DNA of 64,000 nucleotides from a virus (Duplodnaviria; Caudoviricetes): IMG/VR virus record IMGVR_UViG_3300030330_005258, positions 90,578 through 154,577 of that record. One strand, given 5' to 3'. A model generated the notes under the pieces. The model was not told the origin of the DNA, did no database searches, and saw nothing but the letters and a program-made list of their open reading frames with translations. Positions 23,911-42,241 of this stretch are shown here, piece after piece (positions within the stretch are counted from its first letter, which is position 1; the number at the start of each line of letters is the position of its first letter). The position numbers were made by a program, and so were the translations under genes.

Positions 23911-24870
23911 ATGAAGCACACCTTTACCCGAGAACAAGTAAAAAGAATAATTCTTGAGGAATTAGAAAAGTCAAAAGTTGACGATGCGGCAGAACAAATT
24001 GTCGATGAACTTGAAAGTATGCTTTCTGAAGCTGAAGGAGATTCAGCACTAAAAAGAATCTACGACAAGATCTTTAAAAAAGCTGAAGAAGAGAATATTG
24101 ATGCCGATGAATTAGCAATCAGAGTATACAAACGGGGCAAGCAAAAGAGATTTTTTAGAAAAATTGTTGCAGGTATAACTTTGGCATCCTTTTTAGGTGG
24201 CGTTCAAGCACGAATAGATATGTATTCCCAAATGGGCGCCCAAGCAGATGTAGCCGCACAAACCACCCAACAAGCACTTCAAAGCATAGAGTCCCAAAAA
24301 TCTACTGATGCGATAGAGGAGTTGGGAGGTAAGTTAGAGAGAAGTGTATTATACGCTTGGACACTAGACCCCGGAAAGGGCGACGAAGCCTCTGGCAAGT
24401 TTATCACAGGAATGCAATCAAACTTTCCCCTATTCCTAGATTATGATGCCGGAAGGGTTGAGATATTTTCCCCTGAATATGGTGTAGTTATGAAACTGAA
24501 AAATGACATACAAAAGCAAATAGATCAAGGTGTTACAAACAAAAAAGATCTAAAACCTATGATCTCTGACGTAAGGGCGCCTGATATATCACAACAAGAA
24601 TACGCTCAGATGTATAAGCAACTTTACGATATTCCCGATTTTGAACCTACTAAGGTTGATAAAGAAGACATCGGTGGCAATATTGACAAGGTGAGAAAGA
24701 AAAGTCAAGGCGGCATTAAATTCCTAAAAGCCCGCAAAGGACAAGCCTACGCATACGAAACTTATCAGTTGTCCGATTTCGTAAATGCGGAACTCCCAAA
24801 CAACCCAGGGCTGTCACCGTCACAATTTTATATGAAACTGTTTAATGAGGTCACAGGTCAAAATATCTAG
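23911..24870 (+). CDS. Leader-family (xxxIIxEE) cargo protein with central hydrophobic helix; putative head-internal protein
   Basis: ATG at 23911 with AAGGA SD. MKHTFTREQVKRIILEEL is a variant of the MKITK..IIKEEL leader. IVAGITLASFLGG is hydrophobic. Confidence 0.55.
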   Translation: MKHTFTREQVKRIILEELEKSKVDDAAEQIVDELESMLSEAEGDSALKRIYDKIFKKAEEENIDADELAIRVYKRGKQKRFFRKIVAGITLASFLGGVQARIDMYSQMGAQADVAAQTTQQALQSIESQKSTDAIEELGGKLERSVLYAWTLDPGKGDEASGKFITGMQSNFPLFLDYDAGRVEIFSPEYGVVMKLKNDIQKQIDQGVTNKKDLKPMISDVRAPDISQQEYAQMYKQLYDIPDFEPTKVDKEDIGGNIDKVRKKSQGGIKFLKARKGQAYAYETYQLSDFVNAELPNNPGLSPSQFYMKLFNEVTGQNI

Positions 24871-24879
24871 CCATAACGC

Positions 24880-24908
24880 TTGCACTACCATCAGAACTGT
24901 GTTATATT
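24880..24908 (+). promoter_or_regulatory. Sigma70-type promoter for the small ORF plus Mre11-Rad50 unit
   Basis: TTGCAC-N17-TATATT with TG extended -10, followed by a GGAGGT SD. Confidence 0.65.
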
Positions 24909-24923
24909 ATAGTTGGAGGTAAC

Positions 24924-25034
24924 ATGAACAAGCTCATCAAGAAGGCAGCGTGGATTGCAGGATTCGTAGTGGTTTACCACATCTCCTACGCAGCATTCAC
25001 CATTATGTTTGAAATGACCGGGGCAGCGCATTGA
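24924..25034 (+). CDS. 36-aa small membrane protein (not in ORF track)
   Basis: GGAGGT-aac-ATG; MNKLIKKAAWIAGFVVVYHISYAAFTIMFEMTGAAH*. Its TGA overlaps the TTG start of the next gene (TTGA). Confidence 0.7.
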   Translation: MNKLIKKAAWIAGFVVVYHISYAAFTIMFEMTGAAH

Positions 25035-28000: not shown

Positions 28001-28138
28001 TTTATTCGGATCTTGGAACTAATTAAGGTGTATTTCAAGAACGTCTTGTTGATTTCTCACCTTGATTCTCTCAAAGATTGTGTGGATATGCAGATTGTAA
28101 TTGAGAAAGAAGCAGGTTTCGCAAAGGTAAATCAGTAA
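25031..28138 (+). CDS. Fused Mre11/SbcD nuclease - Rad50/SbcC ATPase (T4 gp47+gp46-like)
   Basis: Phosphoesterase motifs ADTH, CGD, GNHD, YHG, LGDIH. Walker A GKNFSGKS, coiled coil, signature ASGAE, Walker B ILDEP and H-loop ISH, all in one ORF. Confidence 0.92.
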   Translation: MKIAHIADTHIKNLKYHEDYRVCFEQMYQTLREQEVDYIVHCGDIAHTKTQISPEFVEMASNFFSTLSDIAPTFVILGNHDGNLKNSSRQDAITPIVQALDCDDLVLLKDAGETEIRSGVTLNVLSVFDRDNWTDPSDPDSINIALYHGAISNCQTDAGWTMEHGEDNLSIFEEFDFAMLGDIHKRQFLDDEGRVYYAGSTIQQNHGEEDDKGFSIWTINSKDDWDVEHFTLQNPRPFVTVELTRTGKIPRRASVPANARLRIVSDNNLSLDVMRKAVDVARHKFKPESISFLNRSAGKRGSVEEIADGLGMQNLRDPEVQQELISEYLKDYQVKPDVMSIIYELNSKYNQQVESKEDISRNVNWELVTFDWSNLFNYGEGNSVDFRNINGITGIFGKNFSGKSSIIDAILFTIFNTTSKNERKNVNVVNQNCDWGEGKVVINIGKKVYTIHRKVEKYEKKSKGETTIEAKTHLDFSVFDPVTDETTSLNGITRNQTDANIRKHFGTIDDFLISSMSSQHGALAFINEGSTKRKEIIAKFLDLQFFDKKFKLGKEGALDSKVLMKKLEGRDYDKEIQDAQEALEGYKADVLKVETDKLKLESTLQFANNNVLELSQKIANIPTEVIDIHEVQSEIKKTKNKIISLSDSIVDDGNALHRERERLTKINDLLQTLDYHSLASSLVSIEESENELQSYTQRLEVATEKKKLLEDIPCGTAYPACKFIRDAHVATAVIPETESKIEELEKLLSDLNPKIVRDHLDKYRKLEKKQIETESLIKDLQLGIERRRSALDRHNALIEELAQKQSSYNDNKEAIENLEKLLKEKKLYARESQSIEKQIESNSQKKIDLYKSLGSEEQRIEDLKQRQLEFQSIQSEYSSYDLFLRCMHPNGIAYDIIKQKLPVINEEIAKILSNVVDFEIFFETSGNKFDIFIKHPKHEARPIEMASGAEKTMAAMAIRLALLSVSSLPKSDLFILDEPGTALDEENMAGFIRILELIKVYFKNVLLISHLDSLKDCVDMQIVIEKEAGFAKVNQ

Positions 28139-28572
28139 TGAAAATTACAAAGACCAGACTAAAACAAATCATCAAAGAAGAACTTGAGACAACTATGAGC
28201 GAGGGATTCTTTGACGAATTTATTAATAAGCTAAAGATTGACATAAATCCAGCCGAAGATCAAAAAGCAAAAAAGATGATGTTGAGGATGGCGATGCGTT
28301 CGAAGGAAAAGCAACTAGGATTAGAGTCTGGCTATCTTGTTGATACGCTCTATGATATGTCAAGCAAAGAACGAGATGTCTTGTCCTTGACAGAAGAGTT
28401 CAATAATCTACTAGAAGTTCTTTACACTGCTGCCCACCGCACCGCACCAGAGGACCAGAAGTCTGACAAAGAATTGGGACAGATGATAAAGAGATTTTTA
28501 GACAATGATCCAGAAACTGTGCAACTAATGTATCCACAGGTAAACAGATTAAGAAAAAAACTGAGACTTTAA
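28138..28572 (+). CDS. MKITK-leader cargo protein (putative head-internal protein)
   Basis: N-terminus MKITKTRLKQIIKEELETTMSE; remainder unrecognised. Confidence 0.6.
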   Translation: MKITKTRLKQIIKEELETTMSEGFFDEFINKLKIDINPAEDQKAKKMMLRMAMRSKEKQLGLESGYLVDTLYDMSSKERDVLSLTEEFNNLLEVLYTAAHRTAPEDQKSDKELGQMIKRFLDNDPETVQLMYPQVNRLRKKLRL

Positions 28573-28587
28573 CAATAAGGATAACTA

Positions 28588-29718
28588 ATGAGTAACGAGT
28601 TTGACTTTCTGCCACCAGCAGAAGCACCCCCATCATTCAACCAAGAAAAGGACCACTTTCACGAAGAAGTAGAAGCGGAAGACTTTGGTATGGTTGAGGA
28701 CTTCGGATTACAGATGGAATACTCTGACGAAGATATGTTACCCGAGAACACAGCACCATCATCCATAAACGTGGGCTTTGTTGGTGTTGGCGGTGGCGGC
28801 AACAAGATGGCGAACGCTATGATTGAGTTGGGCTTCAACAAGACCCTGCTTGTCAATAGCACAGGCAAAGACATTCCAAAGAATGTAGAAGAGGAGCACG
28901 TCGTTCTTATTCCCGATTCTGACGGCATCGGTAAGAACATCGCCTACGGCAAGGAAGTCCTAACACAGAACGGCGCTATTGTAGAAGACGCCCTACGCAT
29001 CAAGTTTGGCAAGGTTGATTGGCTGTTCGTGATGGCAGGCGGCGGCGGTGGCACTGGTTCGTCCGTGGTTGCCCTACAGCCTGTGTTTGAACGCTACCTA
29101 CAATCTGTTCAGGCAAGCGGTAAAGTTGTCTATATCGTCTCTTGGCCAACAGCACAAGAGAATCTAAACCCCACAATCGCCCGCAACGCCTTGTCTTTGA
29201 TAAATGATGTCACGCCATACCCACACATCGTTGTAGATAACGAGCGCTCTACGCGCCTCCTACGCGGTCGTATCGGTATGCTTGGAATGTATCCAGTAGC
29301 CAATACCCAGTTTTCAAAGATCTTCGCACAGATACTCAAACTATCCACCGAAGACTCACCTATACAATCTTTTGACTCCAGAGACTTGGAGACCTGCTTT
29401 GGTAAGGACGGTCGTGCCTTCATCGGCTCTACTATGATCAAAGATCCGAACACTGGCAAGCTCGGAACAACAATTATGCACAACTGTATGAACCGCTCTG
29501 CTTGCCCTCCACCCAAGGGTAAGGCGGCAGCAGGGTCACTTATTCTCGTAGCAAGTGAAGAGATGGTTGCAGACCCTCGCGTGTCCAAGCACCTTGAGTC
29601 TGCGATTGCTTATGTCGGTGGTCGCTGCGAGACACTTTTCTCTGGTGTTTATGTCAGAAAGAATGTCCCCGGACTGATTGCGATACTAAGTATGAATGGT
29701 ATCGAGAAAGGAAAATAA
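28588..29718 (+). CDS. Tubulin/FtsZ-family GTPase with acidic N-terminal extension
   Basis: T1 GVGGGGN, T2 LVNST, T3 GIGKN, T4 signature GGGGTGS, P..E, VDNE and T7-like FDSRD. No C-terminal FtsZ tail. Confidence 0.9.
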   Translation: MSNEFDFLPPAEAPPSFNQEKDHFHEEVEAEDFGMVEDFGLQMEYSDEDMLPENTAPSSINVGFVGVGGGGNKMANAMIELGFNKTLLVNSTGKDIPKNVEEEHVVLIPDSDGIGKNIAYGKEVLTQNGAIVEDALRIKFGKVDWLFVMAGGGGGTGSSVVALQPVFERYLQSVQASGKVVYIVSWPTAQENLNPTIARNALSLINDVTPYPHIVVDNERSTRLLRGRIGMLGMYPVANTQFSKIFAQILKLSTEDSPIQSFDSRDLETCFGKDGRAFIGSTMIKDPNTGKLGTTIMHNCMNRSACPPPKGKAAAGSLILVASEEMVADPRVSKHLESAIAYVGGRCETLFSGVYVRKNVPGLIAILSMNGIEKGK

Positions 29719-29719
29719 A

Positions 29720-30202
29720 ATGAATTTTTTAAAGACACTATGGAGTTGGTTATTAAAACTAATGCGATGCTCCCCAAGAATGCCTGTTAGCATTTCAGAC
29801 TTAGAAAAAGAACCACTTGAAGCGGACTGCTGTGAAGAGGTATGCGAGATCGAAGAAGAGTGTTGCGATCACGAAGATTGTGAACCCGCACCAGATCCCA
29901 TCATAGAAGTTCACGTAAAGGAAGAGCCCACTCCAGTCGTAGTAGAGGAAGTGGAAGAGCCAGAACCCGTTGAGATTATTGAAGAGGTATCCGCTGCACC
30001 CGCTCCTGTGGGCGAGTTGCTTAGACAAATCTTACTAGCAGAAGGCATCAGCGAAGGTGTTATCGGGAAGTATCAGATCATTGAAACATTTGAGGACTGG
30101 TACGACGGACCTATAGACGACGCCTCTGTCCGCGCAAGTATTCAAGATTTCAAGTCTGCCCAAGGTGGGGTGATTAAAGCTAAATTGAGTAGAGTACAAT
30201 GA
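29720..30202 (+). CDS. Protein with N-terminal amphipathic helix, Cys/acidic patch and Glu/Pro linker (putative membrane tether)
   Basis: ATG at 29720 after AAGGA. MNFLKTLWSWLLKLMR, then DCCEEVCEIEEECCDHEDC, an EEP/PVVV linker and a C-terminal domain of about 60 aa. Confidence 0.55.
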   Translation: MNFLKTLWSWLLKLMRCSPRMPVSISDLEKEPLEADCCEEVCEIEEECCDHEDCEPAPDPIIEVHVKEEPTPVVVEEVEEPEPVEIIEEVSAAPAPVGELLRQILLAEGISEGVIGKYQIIETFEDWYDGPIDDASVRASIQDFKSAQGGVIKAKLSRVQ

Positions 30203-30711
30203 AGATTACAAAAGCTAAATTAAAGCAAATTATTAAAGAAGAACTCGAAGTAGTCCTCACAAACGAAGAGGTCGAAGAGATGTTTGGTGAAGAAGTCCGC
30301 GCCCAAGTAGAAGCGTTAGAAAGCGAAAAGATTACCAAAGAAGCAATAATGGAAGAGATTCAATCTGATCCTGCTCTTCTAGATGCGATTGTCAAATTAA
30401 CCGATTCGATTGATGGACTTGATGTTAGCATAGACTTCCTATCCGCCGCCTTCACGGGTGAGTCGGGCGTGTCCATCGGTGCCGCCCAACGACAACTTGG
30501 TCGTGCTTACAGACCCAAGGTCCGAGCAGCCCCCGCACCTATGGACGAAGAGCTAGACGAAAGAAAATTGTCCAAAGGCGAAGAAAAGGAAAAAGAGAAG
30601 ATAGTTAAGGGTATGAAGAAATCAAAGAGTGATTTCAAGAAGCGCTATGGCGGTGACGCCGAAAGCGTAATGTACGCAACGGCGACAAAGATCGCAAAGG
30701 ATAAAAAATGA
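30199..30711 (+). CDS. MKITK-leader protein with basic C-terminal 'IVKGMKK..DFKKRYG...VMYATATK' domain
   Basis: Leader MKITKAKLKQIIKEEL, acidic middle, LDE-delimited basic C-terminal module. I recall this module from T4-like head-associated hypothetical proteins. Confidence 0.6.
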   Translation: MKITKAKLKQIIKEELEVVLTNEEVEEMFGEEVRAQVEALESEKITKEAIMEEIQSDPALLDAIVKLTDSIDGLDVSIDFLSAAFTGESGVSIGAAQRQLGRAYRPKVRAAPAPMDEELDERKLSKGEEKEKEKIVKGMKKSKSDFKKRYGGDAESVMYATATKIAKDKK

Positions 30712-31226
30712 AAATCAAAAAGTCAGAGCTACTCGCTCTAATCAAAGAAGAAATTATGAAAGAAGCGCCCTTCGGTCGTGGTATGACAATGATGGACGAC
30801 CCGTATGACGAAATTGAACCAGAGCCAGCCTCCATGCAGAGCGGTGGGGCAATGGATCAGGCTTTCCAGTATATCTTGACCGATGTTGAAAAAAGCCTAG
30901 ACTTCCCAGCCGGTGCTCTTGTTAACTACCTTGTCACACAAAACCCGGAGGCAAGCCCCGAAGCTGTCGGACAAATGGCAGTACAAACCTTAGAAGTTCT
31001 CGGAATGAATTTTCCAACTGAGCGCGCTGTTGAAGAACACATCAACAGAGAGATGGACGACAGAGAAGCCGACATGATGCAAGAAGGCATGGAAGGTATC
31101 AACCCCGAGAACATGCAACTTGTAGCGGACGCCCTACAGAAGATGGCACCGCTAATTGGTGTTATGTCGTTGCCAGTTCTTATTGGACTTATCTATGAGC
31201 AACTTCGCGGCATGGGCGCCAAATGA
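30708..31226 (+). CDS. Leader-family cargo protein with C-terminal hydrophobic helix
   Basis: MKIKKSELLALIKEEIMKE; C-terminal APLIGVMSLPVLIGLIY. Confidence 0.55.
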   Translation: MKIKKSELLALIKEEIMKEAPFGRGMTMMDDPYDEIEPEPASMQSGGAMDQAFQYILTDVEKSLDFPAGALVNYLVTQNPEASPEAVGQMAVQTLEVLGMNFPTERAVEEHINREMDDREADMMQEGMEGINPENMQLVADALQKMAPLIGVMSLPVLIGLIYEQLRGMGAK

Positions 31227-31426: not shown

Positions 31427-31442
31427 GTTGAAAGACCAAACA

Positions 31443-31949
31443 ATGAAGATTACAAAGACTAGATTAAAAAAAATTATCAAAGAAGAACTTGATATAGTTT
31501 TAAAGGAATACCTAACTATGGAAGATGCCCCACGCTATTTTGCTGGGAAAGCCATAGGCGCCCTTAAAGCAGCACGAGAAATGTCCAATCGTTTCGCAAC
31601 AGCAAAAGGTTATGCAGCAAAAGGTCAGTCAATCCGTAAATCAGAACTTGGAAAACTTGAAAAGGAAGTTGGCGGCACTGCCAGAGATTACTGCCGCGAG
31701 GTCGGCAAAGAATTCTATAGAATAGCAGACCAGATGTCTTCAGCAATGGCTTACAAGTCAGGTGCTGACTTTGCTGATTTTGAACCTAGACTAAAAGAAA
31801 TAGGAAAAAAATTAATTTCAGCCTCAAATGCAATGATAACCGCCCCCGAAGGTGGCGCCAAAGAATTTAAAAAAGCAGTAGATCAATTATCTCCCGAATT
31901 TGATGACCTTATTAAGATTGGTTATGAAATTATTGAAGCCAACTCTTGA
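31443..31949 (+). CDS. MKITK-leader cargo protein (helical)
   Basis: ATG at 31443: MKITKTRLKKIIKEELDIVLKE. Confidence 0.6.
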   Translation: MKITKTRLKKIIKEELDIVLKEYLTMEDAPRYFAGKAIGALKAAREMSNRFATAKGYAAKGQSIRKSELGKLEKEVGGTARDYCREVGKEFYRIADQMSSAMAYKSGADFADFEPRLKEIGKKLISASNAMITAPEGGAKEFKKAVDQLSPEFDDLIKIGYEIIEANS

Positions 31950-31952
31950 AGT

Positions 31953-32339
31953 ATGAATCTGAAACAAAAAATACTATCTTTTTGTCTAAAACACTGGAAG
32001 GAGATCGGGCTTGTCCTGCTCCTTCTTGTTGTATTTGGCAAGTCGCAGTATGATGTACGCAACATTATCAAAGCACACGAGATTGCCGAGCAGTCCTTGA
32101 AGGATCAGATAAGCACCTTACAATCCCTCCACACCGAAGAGTTGCGCTTACGCGATGAAGCCCTTGAACAATATCGCATAGAGATAGAAGAGTTAGAGTT
32201 GGAATACGAAGCACGACAAGCCGAGATAAAGGACTTAACGAGAGCAGAAAAAGAAGTTATAATAAAAGAGTTCAAACAAGACAAGGCTCTGATTATACAG
32301 CGCTTTGAAGAGACCTACGGATTAAGATATGTTGAATAG
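31953..32339 (+). CDS. i-spanin-like protein (N-terminal TM plus coiled coil)
   Basis: EIGLVLLLLVVF TM segment followed by a long helical charged region; near the holin-like gene. Confidence 0.45.
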   Translation: MNLKQKILSFCLKHWKEIGLVLLLLVVFGKSQYDVRNIIKAHEIAEQSLKDQISTLQSLHTEELRLRDEALEQYRIEIEELELEYEARQAEIKDLTRAEKEVIIKEFKQDKALIIQRFEETYGLRYVE

Positions 32340-32739
32340 CCTAATGTTGCTTGCTTTACTCTCGACCGCAAGCGCCGAGGACTTTACAGTCCTCGCAGAA
32401 GACCAGCCCGCCCCATTTGAGGGCGTTCTGCTTAGCGTGCCTGCTGCCGCAGAGATATTGACAAAGCACGAGGAAGCAAAGCTGAAGTGCGATCTTGAAG
32501 TAGAGTTTCAACTTGACAAGGCAGCCTCTCAATGCAAACTTGATAAGGAACTTCTTGAAGCACGCATAGTCACACTTGACCAACAACACGCCGAGATTGT
32601 GGCGTCAAAAGATCTTGTGATCGAAAAGCAGCAAGCGATTATTAAGAAGCAAGCACCACATCGTAAGTGGCTTTGGTTCGCAGGTGGCGTTGTGCTTGGC
32701 GGCGCTACTTACTACGGCATTCAGCAGGCGGCTAAATGA
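32329..32739 (+). CDS. Exported coiled-coil protein with C-terminal hydrophobic anchor (spanin partner-like)
   Basis: Signal peptide MLNSLMLLALLSTASA, coiled coil, C-terminal WLWFAGGVVLGGATYYGI. Overlaps the previous gene. Confidence 0.45.
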   Translation: MLNSLMLLALLSTASAEDFTVLAEDQPAPFEGVLLSVPAAAEILTKHEEAKLKCDLEVEFQLDKAASQCKLDKELLEARIVTLDQQHAEIVASKDLVIEKQQAIIKKQAPHRKWLWFAGGVVLGGATYYGIQQAAK

Positions 32740-33116
32740 GCAAAGACCCAGATTACATTGTTAGAGTAGAGCAAGCCATCGCCAAGAAGTATGGTGAAGA
32801 AGCAATCCAGAATCCCAAAGCAGAATGGGACGAGAATAAAGAGAAAGTTTATCTGGAACAGATGCGAGAACTCTACAAGAAGCAAAAGAAAAACGACGAA
32901 GCCAACGATAAAGTAGAAGTAAATGGTATAAAGGTTTCAAGAAAACTACTTAATAGAGAATCCAAGACAGGGTGTCCTGTTTGTGGTGCCTTCTCACATT
33001 CCGCCCGTGATGACGTATCGCTCGTAAAGTTTGGCTGCTGCTACAAGTGTTATATCAAGTGGGTTGAAGGAAGGGAAGAAAGATGGCAAAAAGGATGGAG
33101 ACCAAATGAAGGCTGA
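32736..33116 (+). CDS. Zn-finger hypothetical protein
   Basis: CPVC...CYKC; C-terminal VEGREERW..GWRP. Confidence 0.6.
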   Translation: MSKDPDYIVRVEQAIAKKYGEEAIQNPKAEWDENKEKVYLEQMRELYKKQKKNDEANDKVEVNGIKVSRKLLNRESKTGCPVCGAFSHSARDDVSLVKFGCCYKCYIKWVEGREERWQKGWRPNEG

Positions 33117-33417
33117 CGAATTAAGAGAACTAATCAGAGAAGTTTTGAAAGAACAAGAAAAAGAAGAAACTCCGACTGACGATAAGAAGGCAACCAAACT
33201 TAAGACTGGTTCGATGTCTGGCTCTCAACGACTAAAAAAGTCAAGAGAAAGAATCACCGACACATCAAACGAATTCACTCCACAAGAACAAAAGATTGTA
33301 GATCAGCTTGAAAAGTTTATTTCCGATCTCGCAGCCAAAGAAGGAATAGATCTCCTACAACATAGAGCTTTCTTAGAGAAAGCTATGAAATTAATTCAAC
33401 AAAGAATTGTAAAATAA
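33106..33417 (+). CDS. Leader-family small protein
   Basis: ATG at 33106 after GGAG. MKADELRELIREVLKE is a leader variant. Confidence 0.55.
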   Translation: MKADELRELIREVLKEQEKEETPTDDKKATKLKTGSMSGSQRLKKSRERITDTSNEFTPQEQKIVDQLEKFISDLAAKEGIDLLQHRAFLEKAMKLIQQRIVK

Positions 33418-33423
33418 AAACCA

Positions 33424-33431
33424 ACTATTTA
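33424..33431 (+). promoter_or_regulatory. Putative late-promoter box ACTATTTA
   Basis: Exact motif 26 nt before 33450, heading the terminase-portal unit. Confidence 0.65.
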
Positions 33432-33449
33432 TTTCAAAGGAATACCACA

Positions 33450-33998
33450 ATGGCAACAGTTTACGAAATCGTCCAGGCGCTATCACAAGCCGCAGCAAAC
33501 GCCTATGACGGAGCACATGATGCGGACGGCAAGCCAATCCAAGCAGGTCTACAGCGGGAAGAAGGCGAGCCACTCATTGACAAGCGCGTCATGGACGGCT
33601 TCAATGTTAGATTCCACGGTAACATCATGCGTCTATCCTACATGTCCGAAGTTCACCTAAAAGAAGTATATGCTAACGGCTTTGAGTCTGATATAGAACA
33701 GCGCATGGCTGACATTGTAAAGTTTCTGAAGAAAGAAGCCCGAAAGGCTGGCGGCGGATCTATCTCACTCGCTAAAGAGGGAGAGATTGATATCCGTGTT
33801 GAAAATTCTTCAAGAGTCCGTTCTTGGGTAACAGCCGTTATGGATTACAAGATTGGCGGCATGGAAGCGGCATCTGTCGTTGGCGAAGCAACTGAAGATA
33901 AGCTCGCCGCAGGTTGGGAAAAGTTCATGTCACAGGGCGGACTTGGTACCCGTCCTCCAAATGACAAGAGACCAGCAAACTCTGGCAAGAAAGAATAA
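33450..33998 (+). CDS. Hypothetical protein upstream of terminase
   Basis: 182-aa ORF with AAGGA SD. Confidence 0.65.
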   Translation: MATVYEIVQALSQAAANAYDGAHDADGKPIQAGLQREEGEPLIDKRVMDGFNVRFHGNIMRLSYMSEVHLKEVYANGFESDIEQRMADIVKFLKKEARKAGGGSISLAKEGEIDIRVENSSRVRSWVTAVMDYKIGGMEAASVVGEATEDKLAAGWEKFMSQGGLGTRPPNDKRPANSGKKE

Positions 33999-34008
33999 AG
34001 AAAGATGA

Positions 34009-35589
34009 ATGCCAAGATTAACGAAACAACAAATACTCAAAGAAGTTGTTAAGTGCGGTAAAGATCCTTCCTACTTCCTGAAAAACTATGCCCGCATCTC
34101 TCACCCGATGCACGGGCTTATGTTGTTTAAGACATACGATTATCAGGATAAGCTACTAGACGACTTTAACGACTATCGATTTAACATCATTAACAAGGGT
34201 CGCCAGCTAGGCATCTCAACAATTACGGCTGGCTACATTGTTTGGATGATGCTGTTTCATCGCGACAAGGCTATTCTTGTTATGGCAACCAAGTTTGATA
34301 CCGCAGGTAACTTGGTTCGTAAAGTCAAGAATATCATGAAGAACCTTCCTGACTGGATCAGGATCGCAAACATTACAACTGACAACCGCACGTCCTTTGA
34401 GTTGTCCAACGGCTCCACCATCAAGGCTGCTTCTACCTCTGGCGATGCTGGTCGTTCAGAGGCTCTATCGCTTCTTGTTCTTGACGAGGCTGCCCACATT
34501 GAAGGCTTGGACGAACTTTGGACTGGTCTATACCCAACGCTATCAACTGGTGGTCGCTGTATTGCTATCTCAACTCCAAATGGTGTTGGTAACTGGTTTC
34601 ACAAAACTTGTACAGGTGCCGAGAGTAATGAAAATAATTTTAACCTCACTACCCTTATGTGGGATGTACACCCAGATAGAGACGAAGAATGGTTCAAAAA
34701 AGAAACCAAGAATATGTCCAAACGCCAGATTGCACAGGAGTTGGAGTGTAACTTCAACACGTCTGGTGAAACTGTCATAGATCCGTCAGGTATTGACTGG
34801 ATGATGTCGTTGGTGCGAGAACCAAAGCACAGAACTGGATTCGACAGAAACTTTTGGATTTGGGAAGAGTACGATCCAACTTGCAACTATCTTCTTGCAG
34901 CCGATGTGGCAAGAGGCGACGGTGCAGATAGCTCTACGTTTCACATTCTAAAACTTGAAACGATGGAGATTATTGGAGAATACCAGGGTAAACCAACACC
35001 CGACCTGTATGCCAATATGCTAAACCAAGTTGGTAGAGAGTTTGGCAATGCGATGATGGTTGTAGAAAACAATTCTATTGGTTATACAGTGATCGATAAA
35101 CTTATAGAGTATGGCTATCCTAATCTTTATTATTCAATCAAATCTACACACGAGTATATAGACCAGCACTTGGGCGAACACAGAAGCGGAGCGATTGCCG
35201 GATTCTCCACTACAACCAAGACTAGACCCCTGATTGTAGCCAAGTTGGAAGAGTTTATAAGAAACAAACTAATTAAGACGTATTCCTCACGTTTGGCAAA
35301 TGAATTTAGAACATTTATTTGGAACAACGGGAAACCACAAGCAATGCGAGGGTATAACGATGATTTGGTAATGGCTCTTGCGATTTGTTGTTGGGTCCGA
35401 GACACAGCAATACAATCAAACTCCCGAGACCTAAATTACCAAAAAGCTTTTGTTGATGCTATTATGACTTCTAGAACAACGTTGAACACCCAGATAAAGG
35501 GACAAATTGGCTACACAGGAGAAGACACAACTAGTAAAATGAACGAAGCAAAAAATCTATACTCCCAATATATGTGGATAATTAAGTGA
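34009..35589 (+). CDS. terL: Terminase large subunit (T4 gp17-like)
   Basis: Walker A KGRQLGIST, Walker B LLVLDEAAH, motif III ISTPNG, nuclease ADVARGDGAD, VENN and NDDLVMA. Confidence 0.95.
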   Translation: MPRLTKQQILKEVVKCGKDPSYFLKNYARISHPMHGLMLFKTYDYQDKLLDDFNDYRFNIINKGRQLGISTITAGYIVWMMLFHRDKAILVMATKFDTAGNLVRKVKNIMKNLPDWIRIANITTDNRTSFELSNGSTIKAASTSGDAGRSEALSLLVLDEAAHIEGLDELWTGLYPTLSTGGRCIAISTPNGVGNWFHKTCTGAESNENNFNLTTLMWDVHPDRDEEWFKKETKNMSKRQIAQELECNFNTSGETVIDPSGIDWMMSLVREPKHRTGFDRNFWIWEEYDPTCNYLLAADVARGDGADSSTFHILKLETMEIIGEYQGKPTPDLYANMLNQVGREFGNAMMVVENNSIGYTVIDKLIEYGYPNLYYSIKSTHEYIDQHLGEHRSGAIAGFSTTTKTRPLIVAKLEEFIRNKLIKTYSSRLANEFRTFIWNNGKPQAMRGYNDDLVMALAICCWVRDTAIQSNSRDLNYQKAFVDAIMTSRTTLNTQIKGQIGYTGEDTTSKMNEAKNLYSQYMWIIK

Positions 35590-35597
35590 GAAACTAA

Positions 35598-37598
35598 ATG
35601 GCACCTAAAAACCCAAAGCAAGGCAAGAACCCTGCAAACAGAGATTCGCAATTATTCAGATCTCTTACTCGACTGTTCTCTGGACCTATTATCAGCTATC
35701 GCTCCGAGTCTGGTCGAAAGATACGCAGACAACATCTTGATAAATATTCTACAAGATTTAAATCTGCGTCAGGGCAGCAATTTAAAAAACAGTCCTATAA
35801 CCCACTAGACACAATTGCGGCAAATGCAATCGCAAACCAACGCAGGTCCGAGCGTTATATTGACTTTGACCAGATGGAGTATATGCCCGAGCTAGCTTCT
35901 GCCCTTGACATCTACGCAGACGAGATGACAACATTCTCTTCTCTTTCTCCGATGCTCAACATCAGATGCCGCAACGATGAAATCAAGGCTGTTCTAGATA
36001 TTCTCTACCATAACGTGATGAACATTGAACACAACCTCTTTGGTTGGTGCCGCACAATGTGCAAGTACGGAGACTTCATTCTATATCTTGATATTGATGA
36101 CGAGATAGGTGTTCAGTCTACAATTGCCATACCACTGCAAGAGATTGAGAGATTAGAAGGTCTTGACGCCACAAATCCGAATTACATCCAGTATCAGTGG
36201 AATTCTGCTGGCATGACGTTTGAGAACTGGCAGATTGCTCACTTCCGCATTCTTGGTAACGACAAGTATTCTCCATACGGCACTTCTGTTCTTGAGCCTG
36301 CGCGTCGTATCTGGCGACAGCTTACCCTAATGGAAGACGCAATGATGGCTTATCGTATTGTTCGTTCATCCGAGCGTAAAGTATTCAAGATTGATGTTGG
36401 CGCCATTCCACCACAAGAAGTCGAACAATACATGCAGAAGATTGTTACCCAGTTGAAGCGTCACACAATTGTAGACAAGGACACTGGGCGCATCGACCTG
36501 CGCTACAACCCGCTCTCTATTGAAGAGGACTACTATATTCCTGTTCGTGCTGGCTCTGTGACTGATATTCAGAACCTCGGAGCAGGACAGAACACAACCG
36601 CGATTGACGACATCAAGTATCTTCGCGACAAGTTGTTCTCAGCTATCAAGATTCCACAAACCTACTTGACCATGGGCGAAGGCGCACAGGAAGATAAAAC
36701 TACCCTTGCTACTAAGGACATACGATTCGCTCGCACAATTCAGCGCCTACAGCGTTCAGTCCTACACGAGCTAGAAAAGATTGGAATTATTCATCTTTAT
36801 ACTCTCGGCTACAGAGGCGAAGATCTACTAAACTTCAAGCTGTCTCTCAACAACCCAAGTAAGATTGCTGAGTTGCAAGAGCTTGAACACTGGAAGACCA
36901 AGTTCGATATTGCTGCATCTGCAACTGAAGGCTATTTCTCACGTCGCTGGGTTGCTGACAATATCTTTGGCATGTCCCACGAAGAGTTCCTACGCAACCA
37001 GCGTGAGATGTTCTACGACCGCAAGCACGACACCGCACTTGAGGGTGTTGCTGAAGCTGCTGCCGCAGGCGGCGGCGAAGCTGGTGGTGGTGGACTTGAC
37101 CTCGGTGGCGACGAAGGTGGTGGCGGTCTTGATCTTGGTGGCGGTGACGAAGGTGGTGGAGAACTTGACCTCGGTGGAGACGAAGGCGGCGATGAAGGTG
37201 GTGGCGAAGACACCGCGCTTCTAGCAGCCCCTCCAGGCTCCCGTGACTCACCACGATTGGCACCATCACTCGGCAAGCGCGCGAGATCAGGTAAGAAATA
37301 TGTGACTAAGGGCTCTAAAGGCAAAGTTTATCAAAAGGTCGCAACAGACAAGAGACCATCCGGGGCAAGAACTCGCAACTACGCAAGTATCCCAACCCCC
37401 GAAATGAACACCTATCGGTCAAACAACCACGGTGCGTCAGAACTAAGATCACTCGCTAGGGGCATTTATGAAGAGCAAGACCCTAATTACTTGCGAGACC
37501 AAGAGGAAGAGCAATCTCTCCTTGAAGTTAACAGTTCAGTAAAGATGCTTATTGAGAGCCTAGAAACAAAGACTACGGAGAATGATAATGAAAAATAG
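35598..37598 (+). CDS. Portal protein (T4 gp20-like) with Gly/Asp-rich C-terminal extension
   Basis: LMEDAMMAYRIVRSSERKVFKIDVG, EDYYIPVR, DDIKYLRDKLFSAIKIP and DIRFARTIQRLQ are gp20 motifs. Confidence 0.93.
   Translation: MAPKNPKQGKNPANRDSQLFRSLTRLFSGPIISYRSESGRKIRRQHLDKYSTRFKSASGQQFKKQSYNPLDTIAANAIANQRRSERYIDFDQMEYMPELASALDIYADEMTTFSSLSPMLNIRCRNDEIKAVLDILYHNVMNIEHNLFGWCRTMCKYGDFILYLDIDDEIGVQSTIAIPLQEIERLEGLDATNPNYIQYQWNSAGMTFENWQIAHFRILGNDKYSPYGTSVLEPARRIWRQLTLMEDAMMAYRIVRSSERKVFKIDVGAIPPQEVEQYMQKIVTQLKRHTIVDKDTGRIDLRYNPLSIEEDYYIPVRAGSVTDIQNLGAGQNTTAIDDIKYLRDKLFSAIKIPQTYLTMGEGAQEDKTTLATKDIRFARTIQRLQRSVLHELEKIGIIHLYTLGYRGEDLLNFKLSLNNPSKIAELQELEHWKTKFDIAASATEGYFSRRWVADNIFGMSHEEFLRNQREMFYDRKHDTALEGVAEAAAAGGGEAGGGGLDLGGDEGGGGLDLGGGDEGGGELDLGGDEGGDEGGGEDTALLAAPPGSRDSPRLAPSLGKRARSGKKYVTKGSKGKVYQKVATDKRPSGARTRNYASIPTPEMNTYRSNNHGASELRSLARGIYEEQDPNYLRDQEEEQSLLEVNSSVKMLIESLETKTTENDNEK
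37068..37207 (+). repeat. Gly-rich tandem repeat (GGGG-LDL-GGDE) x3 in the portal C-terminus
   Basis: Three imperfect copies of GGTGGTGG(A/C)..CTTGA(C/T)CT(C/T)GGTGG..GACGAA. Confidence 0.85.
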
Positions 37599-38418
37599 AC
37601 ACAACAAGAAGCGTAACACAGCTTTTGTTTTCGAGGCTCTATCTCGTGAAGCGACTGTTGCGATCATCAAGGGCGACCACGAGAGAAAAGAAAAAGTAGT
37701 CTCCATTGTTCGCAAGCATTTTACAGGAGACTCTTTACTTAAGAAAGACCTAGAATGCTACCGCTCTTTGTATGAAAATCAGAACCTAGACGAAACCACT
37801 AGCAAAAAAATTGTAGAGGCTGTGCTGGCTGCTAAGCGCCTTATTGACCCCGATGGATTGTTCAAGCAACAAACTGAAGTCATCAATGATATCAACAAGG
37901 AACTCAGCCCTGCAACATTCAACAACTTTGTGCCAAACTACAAGTCATTGGCTACTATTGCAAAGATGTTTAATACTAGCTCTCCAAAGCAAAAGGTAAT
38001 GCTTGAAGGCAAAATTCTTGAAGCAATGGCAAGTGCCGTAGACGCAACTCCGCTTGAGCCAATGGACAGCATAACTTTCAGAACTTTTACTAAGAAGTTT
38101 AACGCCAAGTATGGCGACTCTCTTCTACAAGAGCAAAGAGAACTTCTGAACCACTACATTTCATCTTTCTCACACGACGATCTTGAAACCAAGATATATC
38201 TCAACAGAGAGCTTGGTAGATTAAAGCAATCACTATCTGAGGCAGTCGATACCGAAGACATCGCAAACGACCCCGAGATGGTTCGCAAGACAAACGCTGT
38301 GAGAGAAAGGCTTGAGAGTCTTTCAAAAGAAACCAGTTTGAACGAATCCACCCTGTTGACCATTATGAGAACACAGGAGTTAGTAAAGGAAATCTACAAC
38401 GATGCCAGTAACAGTTAG
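37588..38418 (+). CDS. Conserved head-morphogenesis-region protein
   Basis: GGAG 7 nt before the ATG at 37588. HNKKRNT..FE.L N-terminus; directly follows the portal. Confidence 0.6.
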   Translation: MKNRHNKKRNTAFVFEALSREATVAIIKGDHERKEKVVSIVRKHFTGDSLLKKDLECYRSLYENQNLDETTSKKIVEAVLAAKRLIDPDGLFKQQTEVINDINKELSPATFNNFVPNYKSLATIAKMFNTSSPKQKVMLEGKILEAMASAVDATPLEPMDSITFRTFTKKFNAKYGDSLLQEQRELLNHYISSFSHDDLETKIYLNRELGRLKQSLSEAVDTEDIANDPEMVRKTNAVRERLESLSKETSLNESTLLTIMRTQELVKEIYNDASNS

Positions 38419-38974
38419 AATTGTTCCGGTCCCAGAGCCAGTAAAAGTAACAATAAAGCCGAAAACCCCTCCTCCTACTGTAACCCTAGAGCTTGACATT
38501 CGTAAGTCACTAAGTGGCGATCTAATGATTTTTGACCACGGCGATATTGATATTGTTCTTTCCGGCAAGGACAAGAAGATTACTGCTTTTCCAAAGCAAA
38601 CAATGACTGACTTTACATATGGCGCACAGAATAGATTATTTGCTCATCTTGCTCGTAAAGGTATTATTATGCCTGAGTCAATCCAGGGTGCCTCTTACTA
38701 TGGCGCTATGGAAGCGCAGCTACAAGAAGCAGCGGACGGCAAGTTAAACGCTGCCAAGTTTGCGCTTGTAAGTATTGAAAAGTTCATCACAGAAGAAAGA
38801 CCATACTTTGAAAAGGTCGAGGCTGATATTGCTGGATTTGAAGACGAATACACCAACCCCGACAAGACCGACTCTACAGAGCTTGGAGAAGTTCCACAGA
38901 GGGACGAACAAGGTTCTATCCGTAAGGGCTACATCAGAGATCCCTACACATTCTCTTACATGTACACAATCTAG
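38402..38974 (+). CDS. Hypothetical protein
   Basis: 190-aa coupled ORF; C-terminal DSTELGEVP...GS motif. Confidence 0.6.
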   Translation: MPVTVRIVPVPEPVKVTIKPKTPPPTVTLELDIRKSLSGDLMIFDHGDIDIVLSGKDKKITAFPKQTMTDFTYGAQNRLFAHLARKGIIMPESIQGASYYGAMEAQLQEAADGKLNAAKFALVSIEKFITEERPYFEKVEADIAGFEDEYTNPDKTDSTELGEVPQRDEQGSIRKGYIRDPYTFSYMYTI

Positions 38975-38983
38975 GAGCCCACT

Positions 38984-39574
38984 ATGACAAAGAAAATGAA
39001 AGTTATAATGGAAAACTGGGACAGGTTTATATTGCAAGAAGAGTTTGAAGCTTGTGATACTCCATTTAAAGTTGGAGATATGTTAATTGGAGTTGATCTT
39101 GTAAAATACTTAGACGATGAAGCCTTATATCAGGATAGACAAGAGATAATAAATCGATCAGAATATAGACAGTATCTTAAAAAAGGAATACAAATAGGCA
39201 AAGCTATAAAGCCTTTTGCTAGTTTAGTGCTCGCATTGGATGGAGGGGCGACGGCTGCTACACTAGGAGCAGCCGATGCAGCCGGCGGATTTCTTGGTCA
39301 AATGTTTGCCCTTGGCTCTAAAAATGAAGGCGACAACAGATACACTGAATTTTTATCAACCTTTTGTGTTGATAATGAGACACTAGACTTAATTGAAGAT
39401 AAATTTCAACAACAATATGTAACACAGACAGATATTGTAGATAAACTACAAGATTACTTTAAAAATGCAAATCCCGAGTCTCCGCTTCCCGATATCACAG
39501 AACATCTAGTGGAATGGCTAAACACAAAATCTGCTTATGCAGGAAGTGAAGAAACAAAAATGGTGACAAAATGA
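38984..39574 (+). CDS. Cargo-type protein with MKVIMENW..F..QE leader and Gly/Ala hydrophobic hairpin
   Basis: AGGAG SD. Leader ends in LQE. LVLALDGGATAATLGAADAAGGFLG segment; AT-rich. Confidence 0.55.
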   Translation: MTKKMKVIMENWDRFILQEEFEACDTPFKVGDMLIGVDLVKYLDDEALYQDRQEIINRSEYRQYLKKGIQIGKAIKPFASLVLALDGGATAATLGAADAAGGFLGQMFALGSKNEGDNRYTEFLSTFCVDNETLDLIEDKFQQQYVTQTDIVDKLQDYFKNANPESPLPDITEHLVEWLNTKSAYAGSEETKMVTK

Positions 39575-39918
39575 TGGAATTATTATTATTTATACTTATA
39601 GCCTACGGGCTCACACAGATTTTGGTATACAGCGATATGCCAATAATCAAAAGACTGCGACCAGACAAAGAATCTTATAGAGGATACGGCAAAGTTTTCC
39701 ATTGCCCTATGTGTATGGGCTTCCACGTTGGTTGGTTTTTAGTCCTACTTTCTCCTTGGACTGAACTATTTACGTTTGACCCAACTTTTGTTAATGCCTT
39801 TATACTTGGTTGTCTTTCATCTGCGACTTCATATGTTCTCAATATGGTGTTCTCAGATGAAGGAATAATGATAAAGCATAATTACAAAAACGATAATTTT
39901 TTTATAGAGGAAGAATAA
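39571..39918 (+). CDS. DUF1360-like membrane protein (CxxC), C-terminus apparently displaced by an insertion
   Basis: Three hydrophobic helices; FHCPMCMGFHVG. Confidence 0.6.
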   Translation: MMELLLFILIAYGLTQILVYSDMPIIKRLRPDKESYRGYGKVFHCPMCMGFHVGWFLVLLSPWTELFTFDPTFVNAFILGCLSSATSYVLNMVFSDEGIMIKHNYKNDNFFIEEE

Positions 39919-40152
39919 ATGAAGATTACCAAAGCAAGACTAAAAGAAATCATTAAAGAAGAAATTGAAGCCGTTAAGGAAGGACCCCAACGCGCGTTCT
40001 GCATTGGCTACGAAAAAGATGGTGAAACAAAGCACCAGACTGTTCATGCTGACGCTCCCGGAATCGCCGAGAGAAAGATCAAGAGAGAGCACGATGTTCG
40101 TGATAGCGCAATCAAGAGCACAAAAGAAGGGAAGTGTAAAGGTCATGCATAA
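39919..40152 (+). CDS. MKITK-leader mini cargo protein flanked by 9-bp direct repeats
   Basis: GAGG SD; MKITKARLKEIIKEEIEAVKE. GCATAATTA at 39876-39884 and at 40147-40155. Confidence 0.65.
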   Translation: MKITKARLKEIIKEEIEAVKEGPQRAFCIGYEKDGETKHQTVHADAPGIAERKIKREHDVRDSAIKSTKEGKCKGHA

Positions 40153-40210
40153 TTATCTTATTGGAAAATGGGGACTACAACCAGTCCGCCGATGCTGCAA
40201 AGGCTCTTAG
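40145..40210 (+). pseudogene. Orphaned 3' end of the DUF1360-like gene (HNYLIGKWGLQPVRRCCKGS), or a 21-aa peptide
   Basis: Removing the DNA between the two GCATAATTA repeats fuses ...GIMIKHN in frame to YLIGKWGLQPVRRCCKGS*. Confidence 0.45.
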
Positions 40211-40243
40211 CTCGCGCGGGTAGCGCCCGCATAAGGAATACAA

Positions 40244-40501
40244 ATGAAACTTACCAGAACAAAACTAAAACAGATTATCAAAGAAGAACTAGACAGGGCT
40301 TCTGAAATTAAAGCTGAAAGAGTTGTTAACTTTATCAAAGATCACGGTGACACACACGCAGAACTTGTGCATCAAGATGATGGTTCTATGAAGATCAAGG
40401 TTGTAACAAAGATATATGATACCAACACTCGCAAGATGAGTTCAGAAGTTAATTATATTGAACCCACTATGCAAGCAGCAAGAGGAATATTGGAATACTA
40501 A
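40244..40501 (+). CDS. MKITK-leader mini cargo protein
   Basis: MKLTRTKLKQIIKEEL. Its RBS/start region is duplicated at the protease start. Confidence 0.65.
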   Translation: MKLTRTKLKQIIKEELDRASEIKAERVVNFIKDHGDTHAELVHQDDGSMKIKVVTKIYDTNTRKMSSEVNYIEPTMQAARGILEY

Positions 40502-40502
40502 A

Positions 40503-41102
40503 ATGAAACTACTAAGAGAATACTACGAACTATGTGAAGGTGGCGTATGCCAAGACCTTCTTACTGAAGACGAGAAACGTTTTGTCGCCGGCGGGGGCAT
40601 GATACTTTCTGGCAAGCTACAAGAAGCAGATGTCCAGAATGGTAATGGTCGTGTCTATCCTCACAAGGTTTTAATGAGAGAAGTCGAGAACTACAAGAAG
40701 CTTGTAAAAGAAAACAGAGCACTTGGTGAACTAGATCACCCCGACGATTCAGTTATCAACTTAAAGAACGCGTCACATATGGTTACGGCTATCTGGATGG
40801 AAGACAAAGCCGTTATGGGTAAGGTTAAAGTCCTCAACACTCCATCTGGACAAGTTCTCAAGTCTCTCGTAGAGTCAGGCGTCAAGCTTGGCATCTCTTC
40901 CCGAGGTATGGGATCTGTGTCGGAGGGCGGTGGCAATGTCGTTGTTCAAGAAGACTTTCAACTCATCTGCTTTGACTTTGTATCTGAGCCTTCAACTCCA
41001 AACGCTTTTATGATGAAAGAGGCAAAACAGTATAACAACAAAGTATTTACAAAAGCTGACCGAATTAACAGGCTACTAAATGAGGTATTAAAAGATGAGT
41101 GA
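40503..41102 (+). CDS. Prohead protease (T4 gp21-like)
   Basis: NGNGRVYP, GELDHP, TPSG, LGISSRG and FDFVSEPS. The ATG at 40503 has an RBS. Confidence 0.93.
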   Translation: MKLLREYYELCEGGVCQDLLTEDEKRFVAGGGMILSGKLQEADVQNGNGRVYPHKVLMREVENYKKLVKENRALGELDHPDDSVINLKNASHMVTAIWMEDKAVMGKVKVLNTPSGQVLKSLVESGVKLGISSRGMGSVSEGGGNVVVQEDFQLICFDFVSEPSTPNAFMMKEAKQYNNKVFTKADRINRLLNEVLKDE

Positions 41103-41517
41103 AGAACAGGAAAAATTAGATGAAGTTGGTGCTCCTGGGCTTTCTGTTGTATTGACAAATTTGGACAATTTGGTAAAAATATTAATAACTGTAAACAAGA
41201 CTGCTAAATCAGAAAAGCTGGAAAAGTCTATTGAAGCAATCAATTTTGTATATAATGGTTTTGAAAAAATGAAAAAAAACTATCCCAAAACATATAAGAT
41301 GGTTTTAGGAGGAGCAGCAATATTAGACCCTGTGGGAGCTATAAAGGCTGGCGCCGCAAGAAAAGTAATCACTGCTTTTGTTAATTCTTTTGGTCTTAAT
41401 CCTCCCCCCGAGCCACCACAAATAGATACCACAAATGCGCCACCCCCACCAGAAAAATTAGAAGAATCTTTAGATAGAATGCAAATCCTTGCAGGAATTG
41501 ACAAGAAGGAAAAATGA
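41095..41517 (+). CDS. Cargo-type protein with C-terminal RMxxLAGI motif shared with the scaffold
   Basis: Ends LEESLDRMQILAGID, while the scaffold ends ARMRKLAGIN. Pro-rich linker; AT-rich. Confidence 0.55.
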   Translation: MSEEQEKLDEVGAPGLSVVLTNLDNLVKILITVNKTAKSEKLEKSIEAINFVYNGFEKMKKNYPKTYKMVLGGAAILDPVGAIKAGAARKVITAFVNSFGLNPPPEPPQIDTTNAPPPPEKLEESLDRMQILAGIDKKEK

Positions 41518-41945
41518 ACAAATCACAACTTAAAAAGTTAATCAAGCCAGTCGTAAAAGAGTGCATCCAAGAAGTTTTGATAGAAGAAGGACTTCTTACA
41601 GAGGTCGTCGCTCAAGTTGCTTCTGGAATGTCTCGACAGCCAATTGTTGAAAACAAGCCAAATAAAAGAAATGATAAGCTATTTAATGAAGACTTGCAAA
41701 TGCAGCGTAAGTCCCGAGAGGCGAACAAAAAGCTACAAGAGCATCGTAAGAAACTTCTAGATTCTATTGGTGGAGACGCTTACAACGGAGTTGATTTATT
41801 TGAAGGTACAACACCTTTAAACAATGCAGGCACCGCAGGCGAAAGCCACAAAACAAATGTACTAGGTGACGATCCAAATGATGCAGGTGTAGATATAAGT
41901 TCAATTATGGGCAACTCAAGCAAGATTTGGCAAGCGATTAAATAG
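41514..41945 (+). CDS. Prohead core-like protein
   Basis: MNKSQLKKLIKPVVKECIQEVLIEE leader-like N-terminus and several x-x-E sites; lies between protease and scaffold. Confidence 0.5.
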   Translation: MNKSQLKKLIKPVVKECIQEVLIEEGLLTEVVAQVASGMSRQPIVENKPNKRNDKLFNEDLQMQRKSREANKKLQEHRKKLLDSIGGDAYNGVDLFEGTTPLNNAGTAGESHKTNVLGDDPNDAGVDISSIMGNSSKIWQAIK

Positions 41946-41953
41946 GATTAATA

Positions 41954-42202: not shown

Positions 42203-42203
42203 T

Positions 42204-42211: not shown

Positions 42212-42241
42212 TTTACGACTATGTAAATACGGAGGATTCTT

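Follow-up and report, generated by a model that had tools for sequence, protein, structure and literature searches.

Why should a virus begin several of its proteins with an almost identical N-terminal leader, MKITKxxLKxIIKEE, and then let them run on into sequences that have nothing in common? The question is raised by the stretch of DNA that we call the window, the last 64 kb (64,000 nucleotides, positions 90,578 to 154,577) of a 154,577-bp single-contig virus record in IMG/VR, IMGVR_UViG_3300030330_005258, with a CheckV completeness of 64%. The leader, or tag, is real and widespread. As to its mechanism, the logic of the sequences leads us to think, with a little more confidence than doubt, that this N-terminal helix of 14–22 residues is a lineage-specific capsid-targeting propeptide that is cut after Glu14. 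The more than 15,000 metagenomic families that carry the tag would then probably represent a much-enlarged version of the capsid-packing signal of phage T4.

A near-identical leader on unrelated proteins

A leader profile of 30 columns, built from 145 leaders (alignment A1), was run on all six reading frames of the entire 154,577-bp genome, with the reversed sequence as decoy; the best decoy scored 6.3 bits. The strict leader occurs seven times in the genome at 33–50 bits, always on the plus strand and always at the start of an open reading frame (ORF). Five of these copies are the near-identical gene starts that an initial annotation of the window had pointed out (28138, 30199, 31443, 39919, and 40244; 37.6–47.0 bits), and two lie outside the window, at genome positions 35882 (49.6 bits) and 31937 (33.2 bits). 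Matches to a degenerate DNA pattern of the leader in this genome number 7 in the forward direction, 0 in reverse, and 0 in the control. The tagged and tag-like genes of the window are listed here with sizes in amino acids (aa) and profile scores, type 1 being the leader just described and type 2 a second leader introduced below.

28138..28572 (+): type-1 tagged gene, 144 aa, beginning MKITKTRLKQIIKEEL..., then TMSE at residues 19–22, cargo unique; 47.0 bits
30199..30711 (+): type-1 tagged gene, 170 aa, mosaic cargo of widespread modules; 43.6 bits
30708..31226 (+): diverged type-1 member, 172 aa, MKIKKSELLALIKEEI; 7.6 bits only
31443..31949 (+): type-1 tagged gene, 168 aa, cargo unique; 40.6 bits
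38996..39574, ORF open from 38984 (+): type-2 tagged gene in the head module, 192 aa, MKVIMENWDRFILQEE
39919..40152 (+): type-1 tagged gene just upstream of the protease, 77 aa; 44.8 bits
40244..40501 (+): type-1 tagged gene immediately before the protease, 85 aa; 37.6 bits
41514..41945 (+): conserved head-module gene with a tag-like N-terminus, 143 aa; 9.6 bits, E 0.097
23911..24870 (+): possible very diverged member, weak, 319 aa, …REQVKRIILEEL…; 7.0 bits against a decoy maximum of 6.3

The looser copies proposed in the same annotation fared unevenly. The gene at 30708 is a diverged member, since an unbiased clustering of N-termini places it in the leader family with at least 9 of 16 residues identical and its cargo matches gene 6778 of the closest relative, G006, which bears the same leader. 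The gene at 41514 does have a tag-like N-terminus (MNKSQLKKLIKP..., and MKKSELKKVIKP... in relatives), but it belongs to the conserved core and not to the variable cargo, and in 4 of 6 relatives a homolog of 53–75% identity follows downstream of the protease. The copy at 23911 scores close to the decoy maximum and has no homolog in the relatives, and the copy proposed at 33106 was not found by the profile.

Past approximately residue 22 there is no homology among the tagged proteins. Those of this genome fall into different BLAST clusters and their predicted folds differ, which agrees with the earlier observation that the proteins are unrelated after about 20 residues. The leader itself is amphipathic with a stripe of lysines. 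AlphaFold2 predicts a helix at residues 5–19 of the 28138 protein that breaks at the TMSE site within an all-alpha model, and for the 40244 protein (predicted local distance difference test score 78) it predicts a helix at residues 5–34 followed by three strands and one helix, a small alpha-beta3-alpha domain. A Foldseek search with the latter model against PDB and BFVD returned no match at E<=0.001; its weak, non-significant matches include double-stranded RNA-binding domains (probability about 0.6, template-modeling score about 0.37).

The similarity also exists at the DNA level, and the roughly 47 nucleotides noted at first are readily seen: in pairwise comparisons of the strict copies, 37–43 of the first 48 nucleotides are identical. 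It stops at both flanks, with 6–21 of 48 identical in the 48 nucleotides upstream and 12–21 of 48 in the following 48, both at random level. Within the leaders, 44% of codon pairs that encode the same residue differ, compared with 55% expected for independent draws from the codon usage of the genome. Synonymous sites are thus near saturation, and selection acts on the peptide and not on the DNA. This weakens the suggestion that a shared DNA prefix allows cargo to be shuffled by recombination, as the nucleotide similarity is a by-product of peptide conservation, and breakpoints of homology at the end of the leader are expected anyway if the peptide is conserved.

A common Glu14 register in three leader families

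An unbiased clustering of all 16-mers that start with Met in this genome (G000), in a 289-kb relative (G001), and in a third genome (G003) recovered three mutually unrelated leader families: MKITKxQLKxIIKEE (type 1), MKLLIENWRxFLxE (type 2), and MKxLRQYIRQxLLE (the third family). Types 1 and 2 were recovered in both G000 and G003, and G001 has 26 type-1 genes along with 14 clustered genes of the third family at 31916–45264 on the minus strand. The type-2 pattern MK[LV][LI][IM]E[NS][WF]..[FY][LI].[EQ] matches five genes at genome positions 33745–47853 and the window gene at 38996, with 0 matches in decoys.

What these families have in common is a register. A hydrophobic residue at position 12 followed by any residue and then Glu14 is present in 37/40 type-1, 8/9 type-2, and 12/14 third-family leaders, compared with 2.9% of all Met-starts. 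In the type-1 leader this is an invariant I12-K13-E14, which by sequence match is an (I/L)-x-Glu site. The initial annotation had placed a hydrophobic-x-Glu site at the end of the leader; in 129 (59%) of the 220 leaders taken from viral contigs such a second site does end at residue 21 or 22, against about 6 per position beyond, but the invariant site at residue 14 had been overlooked. As it is common to three unrelated leader families, Glu14 is the best candidate for a cut site.

The register follows the cutting rule of T4 gp21. The internal proteins (IPs) IPII and IPIII of T4 begin with MKTYQEFIAE and the IPI propeptide ends in ITE, and gp21 cleavage falls after I-A-E10 in IPII and IPIII and after I-T-E19 in IPI (PMC9026906). 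The first ten residues of this capsid targeting sequence (CTS) suffice for packaging; positions 4 and 7 contribute to targeting, positions 8 and 10 to processing, and an Asp in place of the Glu at the cut prevents processing while leaving targeting intact (PMC9026906). Redundant cut sites are known from the propeptides of giant phages (PMC5694885).

The prohead protease and the head module

The source virus is an uncultured marine phage, a distant T4-like myovirus whose large terminase is 43–44% identical to the counterparts in Microcystis phage Mel-JY01 and Flavobacterium phage immuto. Its head module runs from terminase (34009) and portal (35598) through several orphan genes to the protease (40458–41102) and a ribosomal S21 gene, and after a tail-fiber-like insert it continues with an acidic scaffold (48888–50021) and the major capsid protein (MCP; 50048). 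In T4 the gene order is 20-67-68-21-22-23, so the three tagged genes at 38996, 39919, and 40244, located between portal and protease, occupy the site of T4 core genes 67 and 68. Three genes of this module are listed here.

40458..41102, ATG at 40503 (+): prohead protease of the T4 gp21 family, Pfam Peptidase_S77
48888..50021 (+): acidic gp22-like scaffold, directly upstream of the MCP gene
50048..51808 (+): gp23-like MCP with an N-terminal propeptide region; phrog_138, E 2.9e-74

The gp21-like protease that had been recognized at 40503 from the letters alone is confirmed by its match to Peptidase_S77 (E 2.5e-29; 102.6 bits at a cut-off of 27) and by 30% identity to T4 gp21 across 186 aa. The ELxHP and SSRG motifs align between the two proteins, and we take their His and Ser to be the catalytic residues of a Peptidase_S77 protease. 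The MCP has an LLRE site ahead of its conserved core. Among 25 tag-bearing records of at least 65 kb, Peptidase_S77 is present in 17; the other 8 have no MCP either, so the fragment in these cases simply lacks the head module. Wherever a tag-bearing record covers the head module, the gp21-family protease is therefore there as well (17 of 17).

If the leader docks onto a component of the prohead, the scaffold at 48888..50021 would be a candidate partner. It has homologs in 16 of the 25 tag-bearing records, and conservation is strong over the first ~45 residues. A complex prediction with scaffold and leader gave a score of 0.00 ("no answer"), which bears neither way on binding.

Turnover of the cargos between relatives

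In six close relatives the backbone proteins (primase, SbcCD, tubulin, terminase, portal, and protease) are 50–96% identical to those of this genome. The cargos of the five strict window copies, on the other hand, have no homolog in these relatives save for one partial match to 30199, and the type-2 gene at 38996 has none there either. Each relative instead carries 2–8 different tagged genes within the same stretch. DNA homology to G006 continues through the leader and ends with it, at 28198 for the gene at 28138 and at 31487 for the gene at 31443. In these comparisons the tagged cargos turn over fast, as at the IP loci of T4.

The gene at 39919 is missing from G006, where its flanks are adjacent and consist of the end of the 39571 homolog followed by a small ORF beginning MNNYLISKWG... 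Since the two flanks belong to a gene and to a separate small ORF, the tagged gene is an insertion between genes, and the idea of a cassette splitting a resident gene is ruled out. The gene is flanked by two copies of GCATAATTA, a 9-bp repeat (window 39876–40155).

A gene for a tubulin/FtsZ-family GTPase lies among the tagged genes (window 28588–29718, plus strand; Pfam Tubulin, E 2.7e-8). Homologs with 61–96% identity occur in 10 of the 25 tag-bearing records and in 0 of the 2 complete ones, and since most tag-bearing records do without it, this neighbor is ruled out as the partner of the tag.

Spread of the tag and nature of the cargos

A search of IMG/VR with the degenerate DNA pattern returned at least 119 contig stretches, in which a single locus can carry as many as 5 copies. 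Together the loci contain 236 leader ORFs; 219 of them are complete and have a median length of 108 aa. Searched against 1.84 billion metagenomic proteins, the leader profile matched 15,292 representative clusters at E<=0.001, far beyond the tens of hits with patchy, non-homologous C-termini that had been predicted. When residues 1–22 were removed, 217 IMG/VR cargos fell into 171 BLAST clusters, 153 of them singletons (E 1e-3). The full-length homology that would mark an ordinary paralog family is absent, and both the lineage-specific nature of the leader and the patchy distribution of unrelated cargos are upheld at the level of sequence.

The sole large cargo cluster is a chain of shuffled modules, and in some of its proteins a remnant of the leader is found between modules. 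The window gene at 30199 is one of the 23 members that shuffled modules join into a single-linkage cluster, and it has 771 unnamed metagenomic homologs; the 120 listed are all unnamed or called "hypothetical protein" except for one automatic Joint Genome Institute (JGI) label. The top profile matches contain 2–4 complete leader-cargo units in a single ORF, and at least one of these ORFs, P0001, is a true open frame under translation table 11. These proteins could be polyproteins or recent gene fusions, and concatenated units of leader and cargo make sense if an endoprotease separates them. Multi-unit ORFs include P0001, P0004, P0007, P0011, P0026, P0139, and L122:95-1270, and every internal leader in them begins with Met.

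Known domains are rare among the cargos. Only 3 of 149 tagged proteins have a clear Pfam domain, one each of J-domain, leucine-rich repeat (LRR), and FliG_C. None of the window cargos has a match above the curated Pfam cut-off or a named function in Pfam and PHROGs; the only strong PHROG match is to a family of unknown function (phrog_12788, E 5.7e-08, residues 130–169 of 30199). Among ten long tagged proteins only P0136 matched, to EF-hand_6 at 25.6 bits (cut-off 25) with EF-hand_1 below the cut-off, and a domain search with five type-2 tagged proteins gave no match. The extreme turnover, taken together with the J-domain and LRR cargos, argues for host-directed functions.

A tblastn search of GenBank phages with the 22-residue leader and with the whole of 30199 gave no match, which carries no information given the short query and the low-complexity filter. 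A full-text literature search for the leader motif returned no paper that describes it. A weak relative of the tag does occur in a cultured phage. Three genes of vB_FspM_immuto (MW353177), at 102250, 102836, and 113144, start with MKKS[EQ]L..[IL]I[KR].[EA]L (MKKSQLRQIIKEAL) and score 15.1, 8.9, and 6.4 bits; this phage also encodes a gp21-type protease, and it may be an experimental handle among cultured phages.

Other genes of the window

Three further observations concern the surroundings of the tagged genes. The ribosomal protein S21 gene in the head module (window 41954–42202, plus strand; Pfam Ribosomal_S21, E 1.8e-10) has a parallel in Mel-JY01, where rpsU is found in the same place. Directly after the protease, a 140-aa ORF at 41095–41517 with no homolog in the six relatives ends in ...DRMQILAGIDKKEK, and the scaffold ends in ...ARMRKLAGIN (family consensus DRMxxLAGIK); the similar C-termini of the two proteins may constitute a second, C-terminal head-loading motif. 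Finally, a 2,955-aa ORF at window 1344–10211 (plus strand) has homologs in G001 and G003 and none in immuto or Mel-JY01.

Comparison with known systems

The targeting sequence of T4 was reportedly described by Mullaney and Black in 1996. It is carried by IPI, IPII, IPIII, and Alt and is removed by gp21 (reviewed in PMC9026906, PMC3012670, and PMC5694885), and non-conserved proteins that bear a CTS are known from T-even relatives (PMC9026906). The leader described here resembles it in being a short N-terminal peptide that starts with MK, sits on otherwise unrelated proteins, and ends in (I/L)-x-Glu, in a genome that encodes a gp21-family protease and keeps its non-conserved cargos in variable loci. 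In both cases, too, a conserved head protein starts in a way that recalls the tag, namely gp22 in T4 (QLIAE, compared with EFIAE in the CTS) and the product of 41514 here. Unlike the CTS, the leader is 14–22 residues long rather than 10–19, is present in at least 7 copies per genome and up to ~26 in the 289-kb relative rather than 3–4, comes in several types within one genome, and is sometimes concatenated with its cargo within a single ORF. Most of the cargos are acidic, whereas the IPs of T4 are small basic proteins. The T4 genome contains no match to the leader pattern, and in sequence the leader is not similar to the CTS, MKTYQEFIAE. The resemblance is thus one of presumed functional analogy, not homology.

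Giant phages offer a second comparison. In phiKZ, 201phi2-1, and SPN3US, propeptides of head and ejection proteins are cut after Glu by gp21-like proteases (PMC5694885, PMC9026906). Processing C-terminal to Glu after a short motif, with several redundant sites per propeptide, is much like what we propose, and the giant-phage paralogs gp53 and gp54, which keep an identical N-terminal 15 residues, are comparable to the shared leader. Their propeptides are, however, mostly 100 residues or longer and are found on conserved proteins, whereas here a short, portable, and near-identical leader is present on thousands of unrelated small proteins.

The genomic setting recalls the variable "hyperplastic" regions of T4-type genomes, which undergo modular shuffling (PMC2839356). 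There, as here, close relatives differ in the cargo genes that lie among a conserved backbone, and breakpoints of homology coincide with the edges of the cassettes; the exchange in hyperplastic regions is ascribed to conserved regulatory DNA cassettes, whereas the segment shared here is conserved as a peptide. The cargo-loading peptides of encapsulins are likewise short and portable and direct diverse cargo into a shell with the HK97 fold. This is an analogy only, since encapsulin peptides as a rule sit at the C-terminus, attach to the shell protein itself, and are retained rather than cleaved off by a maturation protease, unlike the leader as we propose it to work. The concept of a capsid-targeting propeptide is known; what the literature searched does not contain is this leader family, its size, and the register shared between families.

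Weighing the explanations

If the leader is a capsid-targeting propeptide, then its amphipathic, Lys-striped helix (residues 1–13) would dock the protein on the acidic prohead core or scaffold during head assembly. The gp21-family protease would cut after Glu14 and, in many members, again after the hydrophobic-x-Glu at residues 21–22, releasing the cargo within the head. The cargo might then exit with the DNA at infection, or it might be a disposable component of the core.

Several observations weigh against this propeptide reading. The 16 near-invariant residues exceed what a cut site needs and imply that the leader binds some conserved partner. Many tagged genes are found away from the head module, in the company of replication and accessory genes. 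Matches to the T4 late-promoter motif TATAAATA show no enrichment in this genome (6 versus 2.7 expected), and no plus-strand match lies within 10 kb upstream of any tagged gene. The protease is present in all T4-like phages, so shared ancestry within the clade accounts in part for its being found together with the tag. The strict tag is absent from T4, HTVC008M, RM378, immuto, and Mel-JY01, the cultured phages that we compared, and the leader profile scores no more than 0.3 bits against seven T4 head-module proteins (gp20–gp24, gp67, and gp68). The cargos have a median isoelectric point of 5.0, with 67% below 6 and 21% above 8, compared with 8.9–9.5 for the T4 IPs; the acidity of most of them argues against a simple IP-like, DNA-bound role.

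That acidity suggests one way in which the tag could load the prohead core without delivering anything: the cargos, mostly small and acidic like the core proteins of T4 and unlike the basic IPs, could be expendable accessories of core and scaffold that are degraded and expelled like gp67, gp68, and gp22. Two tagged genes are exactly at the gp67/68 position, and the conserved head gene at 41514 has a tag-like N-terminus. Structural parts should nevertheless be conserved, and here the cargos are replaced even between genomes with up to 96% backbone identity; the more than 15,000 families are difficult to accommodate as well, and the J-domain or LRR modules in some cargos point to host targets, all of which makes this explanation improbable in our estimation. 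To the same low degree we would credit an uncleaved interaction helix, acting in the cytoplasm and unconnected with the capsid, either in oligomerization or in binding to one conserved hub of phage or host. Strong conservation over 16 residues, amphipathicity with a Lys stripe, the internal leaders of multi-unit ORFs, and the location of so many tagged genes away from the head module would all be natural for such a helix. It would, however, leave unexplained why three unrelated leaders have a hydrophobic12-x-Glu14 register in common and why a second hydrophobic-x-Glu site is enriched at residues 21–22, and the tubulin/FtsZ homolog, with its limited distribution, is not the hub. Still less credible, to the point that we give it hardly any weight, is an ordinary paralog family or a nucleic-acid element (a box for translation initiation or recombination, for example) in place of a peptide signal. 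The copies do share ~47 nucleotides, and A-rich codons after the ATG could aid initiation, but homology ends by about residue 22, the predicted folds differ, synonymous sites are near saturation, and there is no common upstream sequence.

The tag might also be recognized by some other lineage-specific factor, for which one pair of genes is a candidate.

Genome G000:21369-24301 (L198): MoxR-type AAA_5 ATPase near a DUF2201_N/DUF2201 putative metallopeptidase-VWA protein

This pair of a MoxR-type AAA+ ATPase and a DUF2201 protein is among only 12 genes of this genome that are present in the distant tag-bearing genomes G001 and G003 and absent from immuto and Mel-JY01, two relatives without the strict tag. 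It follows the tag in the more complete records, both complete ones included, and is absent from T4, HTVC008M, and RM378. In G000, G002, and G003 the distance between the pair and groups of tagged genes is 3–13 kb. Set against this distribution are the huge phage LR756508, which has two tag-like genes and no DUF2201, and LR756511, which has a weak DUF2201 match and no tag. Ten other genes, sugar enzymes included, show the same profile, so the pair may simply mark the clade, and we know of no such role in tag recognition for it. A part for this pair is accordingly a long shot, though a better one than the nucleic-acid element.

Implications

Should the capsid-targeting propeptide be the correct reading, a single short profile would suffice to retrieve from marine viromes thousands of proteins that are candidates for delivery by the virion, nearly all of them with no known domain, and what phages inject besides their DNA would become a searchable and testable set. 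The hydrophobic12-x-Glu14 register would predict which substrates the gp21-family proteases of phages beyond the models recognize, and the leader itself would be a portable tag for loading foreign proteins into the capsids of phages other than coliphages. A bolder version of this idea is that several unrelated 14-residue leaders per genome feed one protease-gated route into the capsid, a "Glu14 code" that delivers a mostly orphan cargo pool of more than 15,000 families, sometimes as polyproteins, into hosts before phage gene expression. We regard this version as tentative and rather doubtful, and if it were true, the cargos would form the largest known reservoir of virion-delivered effectors, with the tag as its sequence handle. 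If instead the tag binds some other conserved partner, it would still rank with the most widespread of the peptide modules in phage proteins that no one has described.

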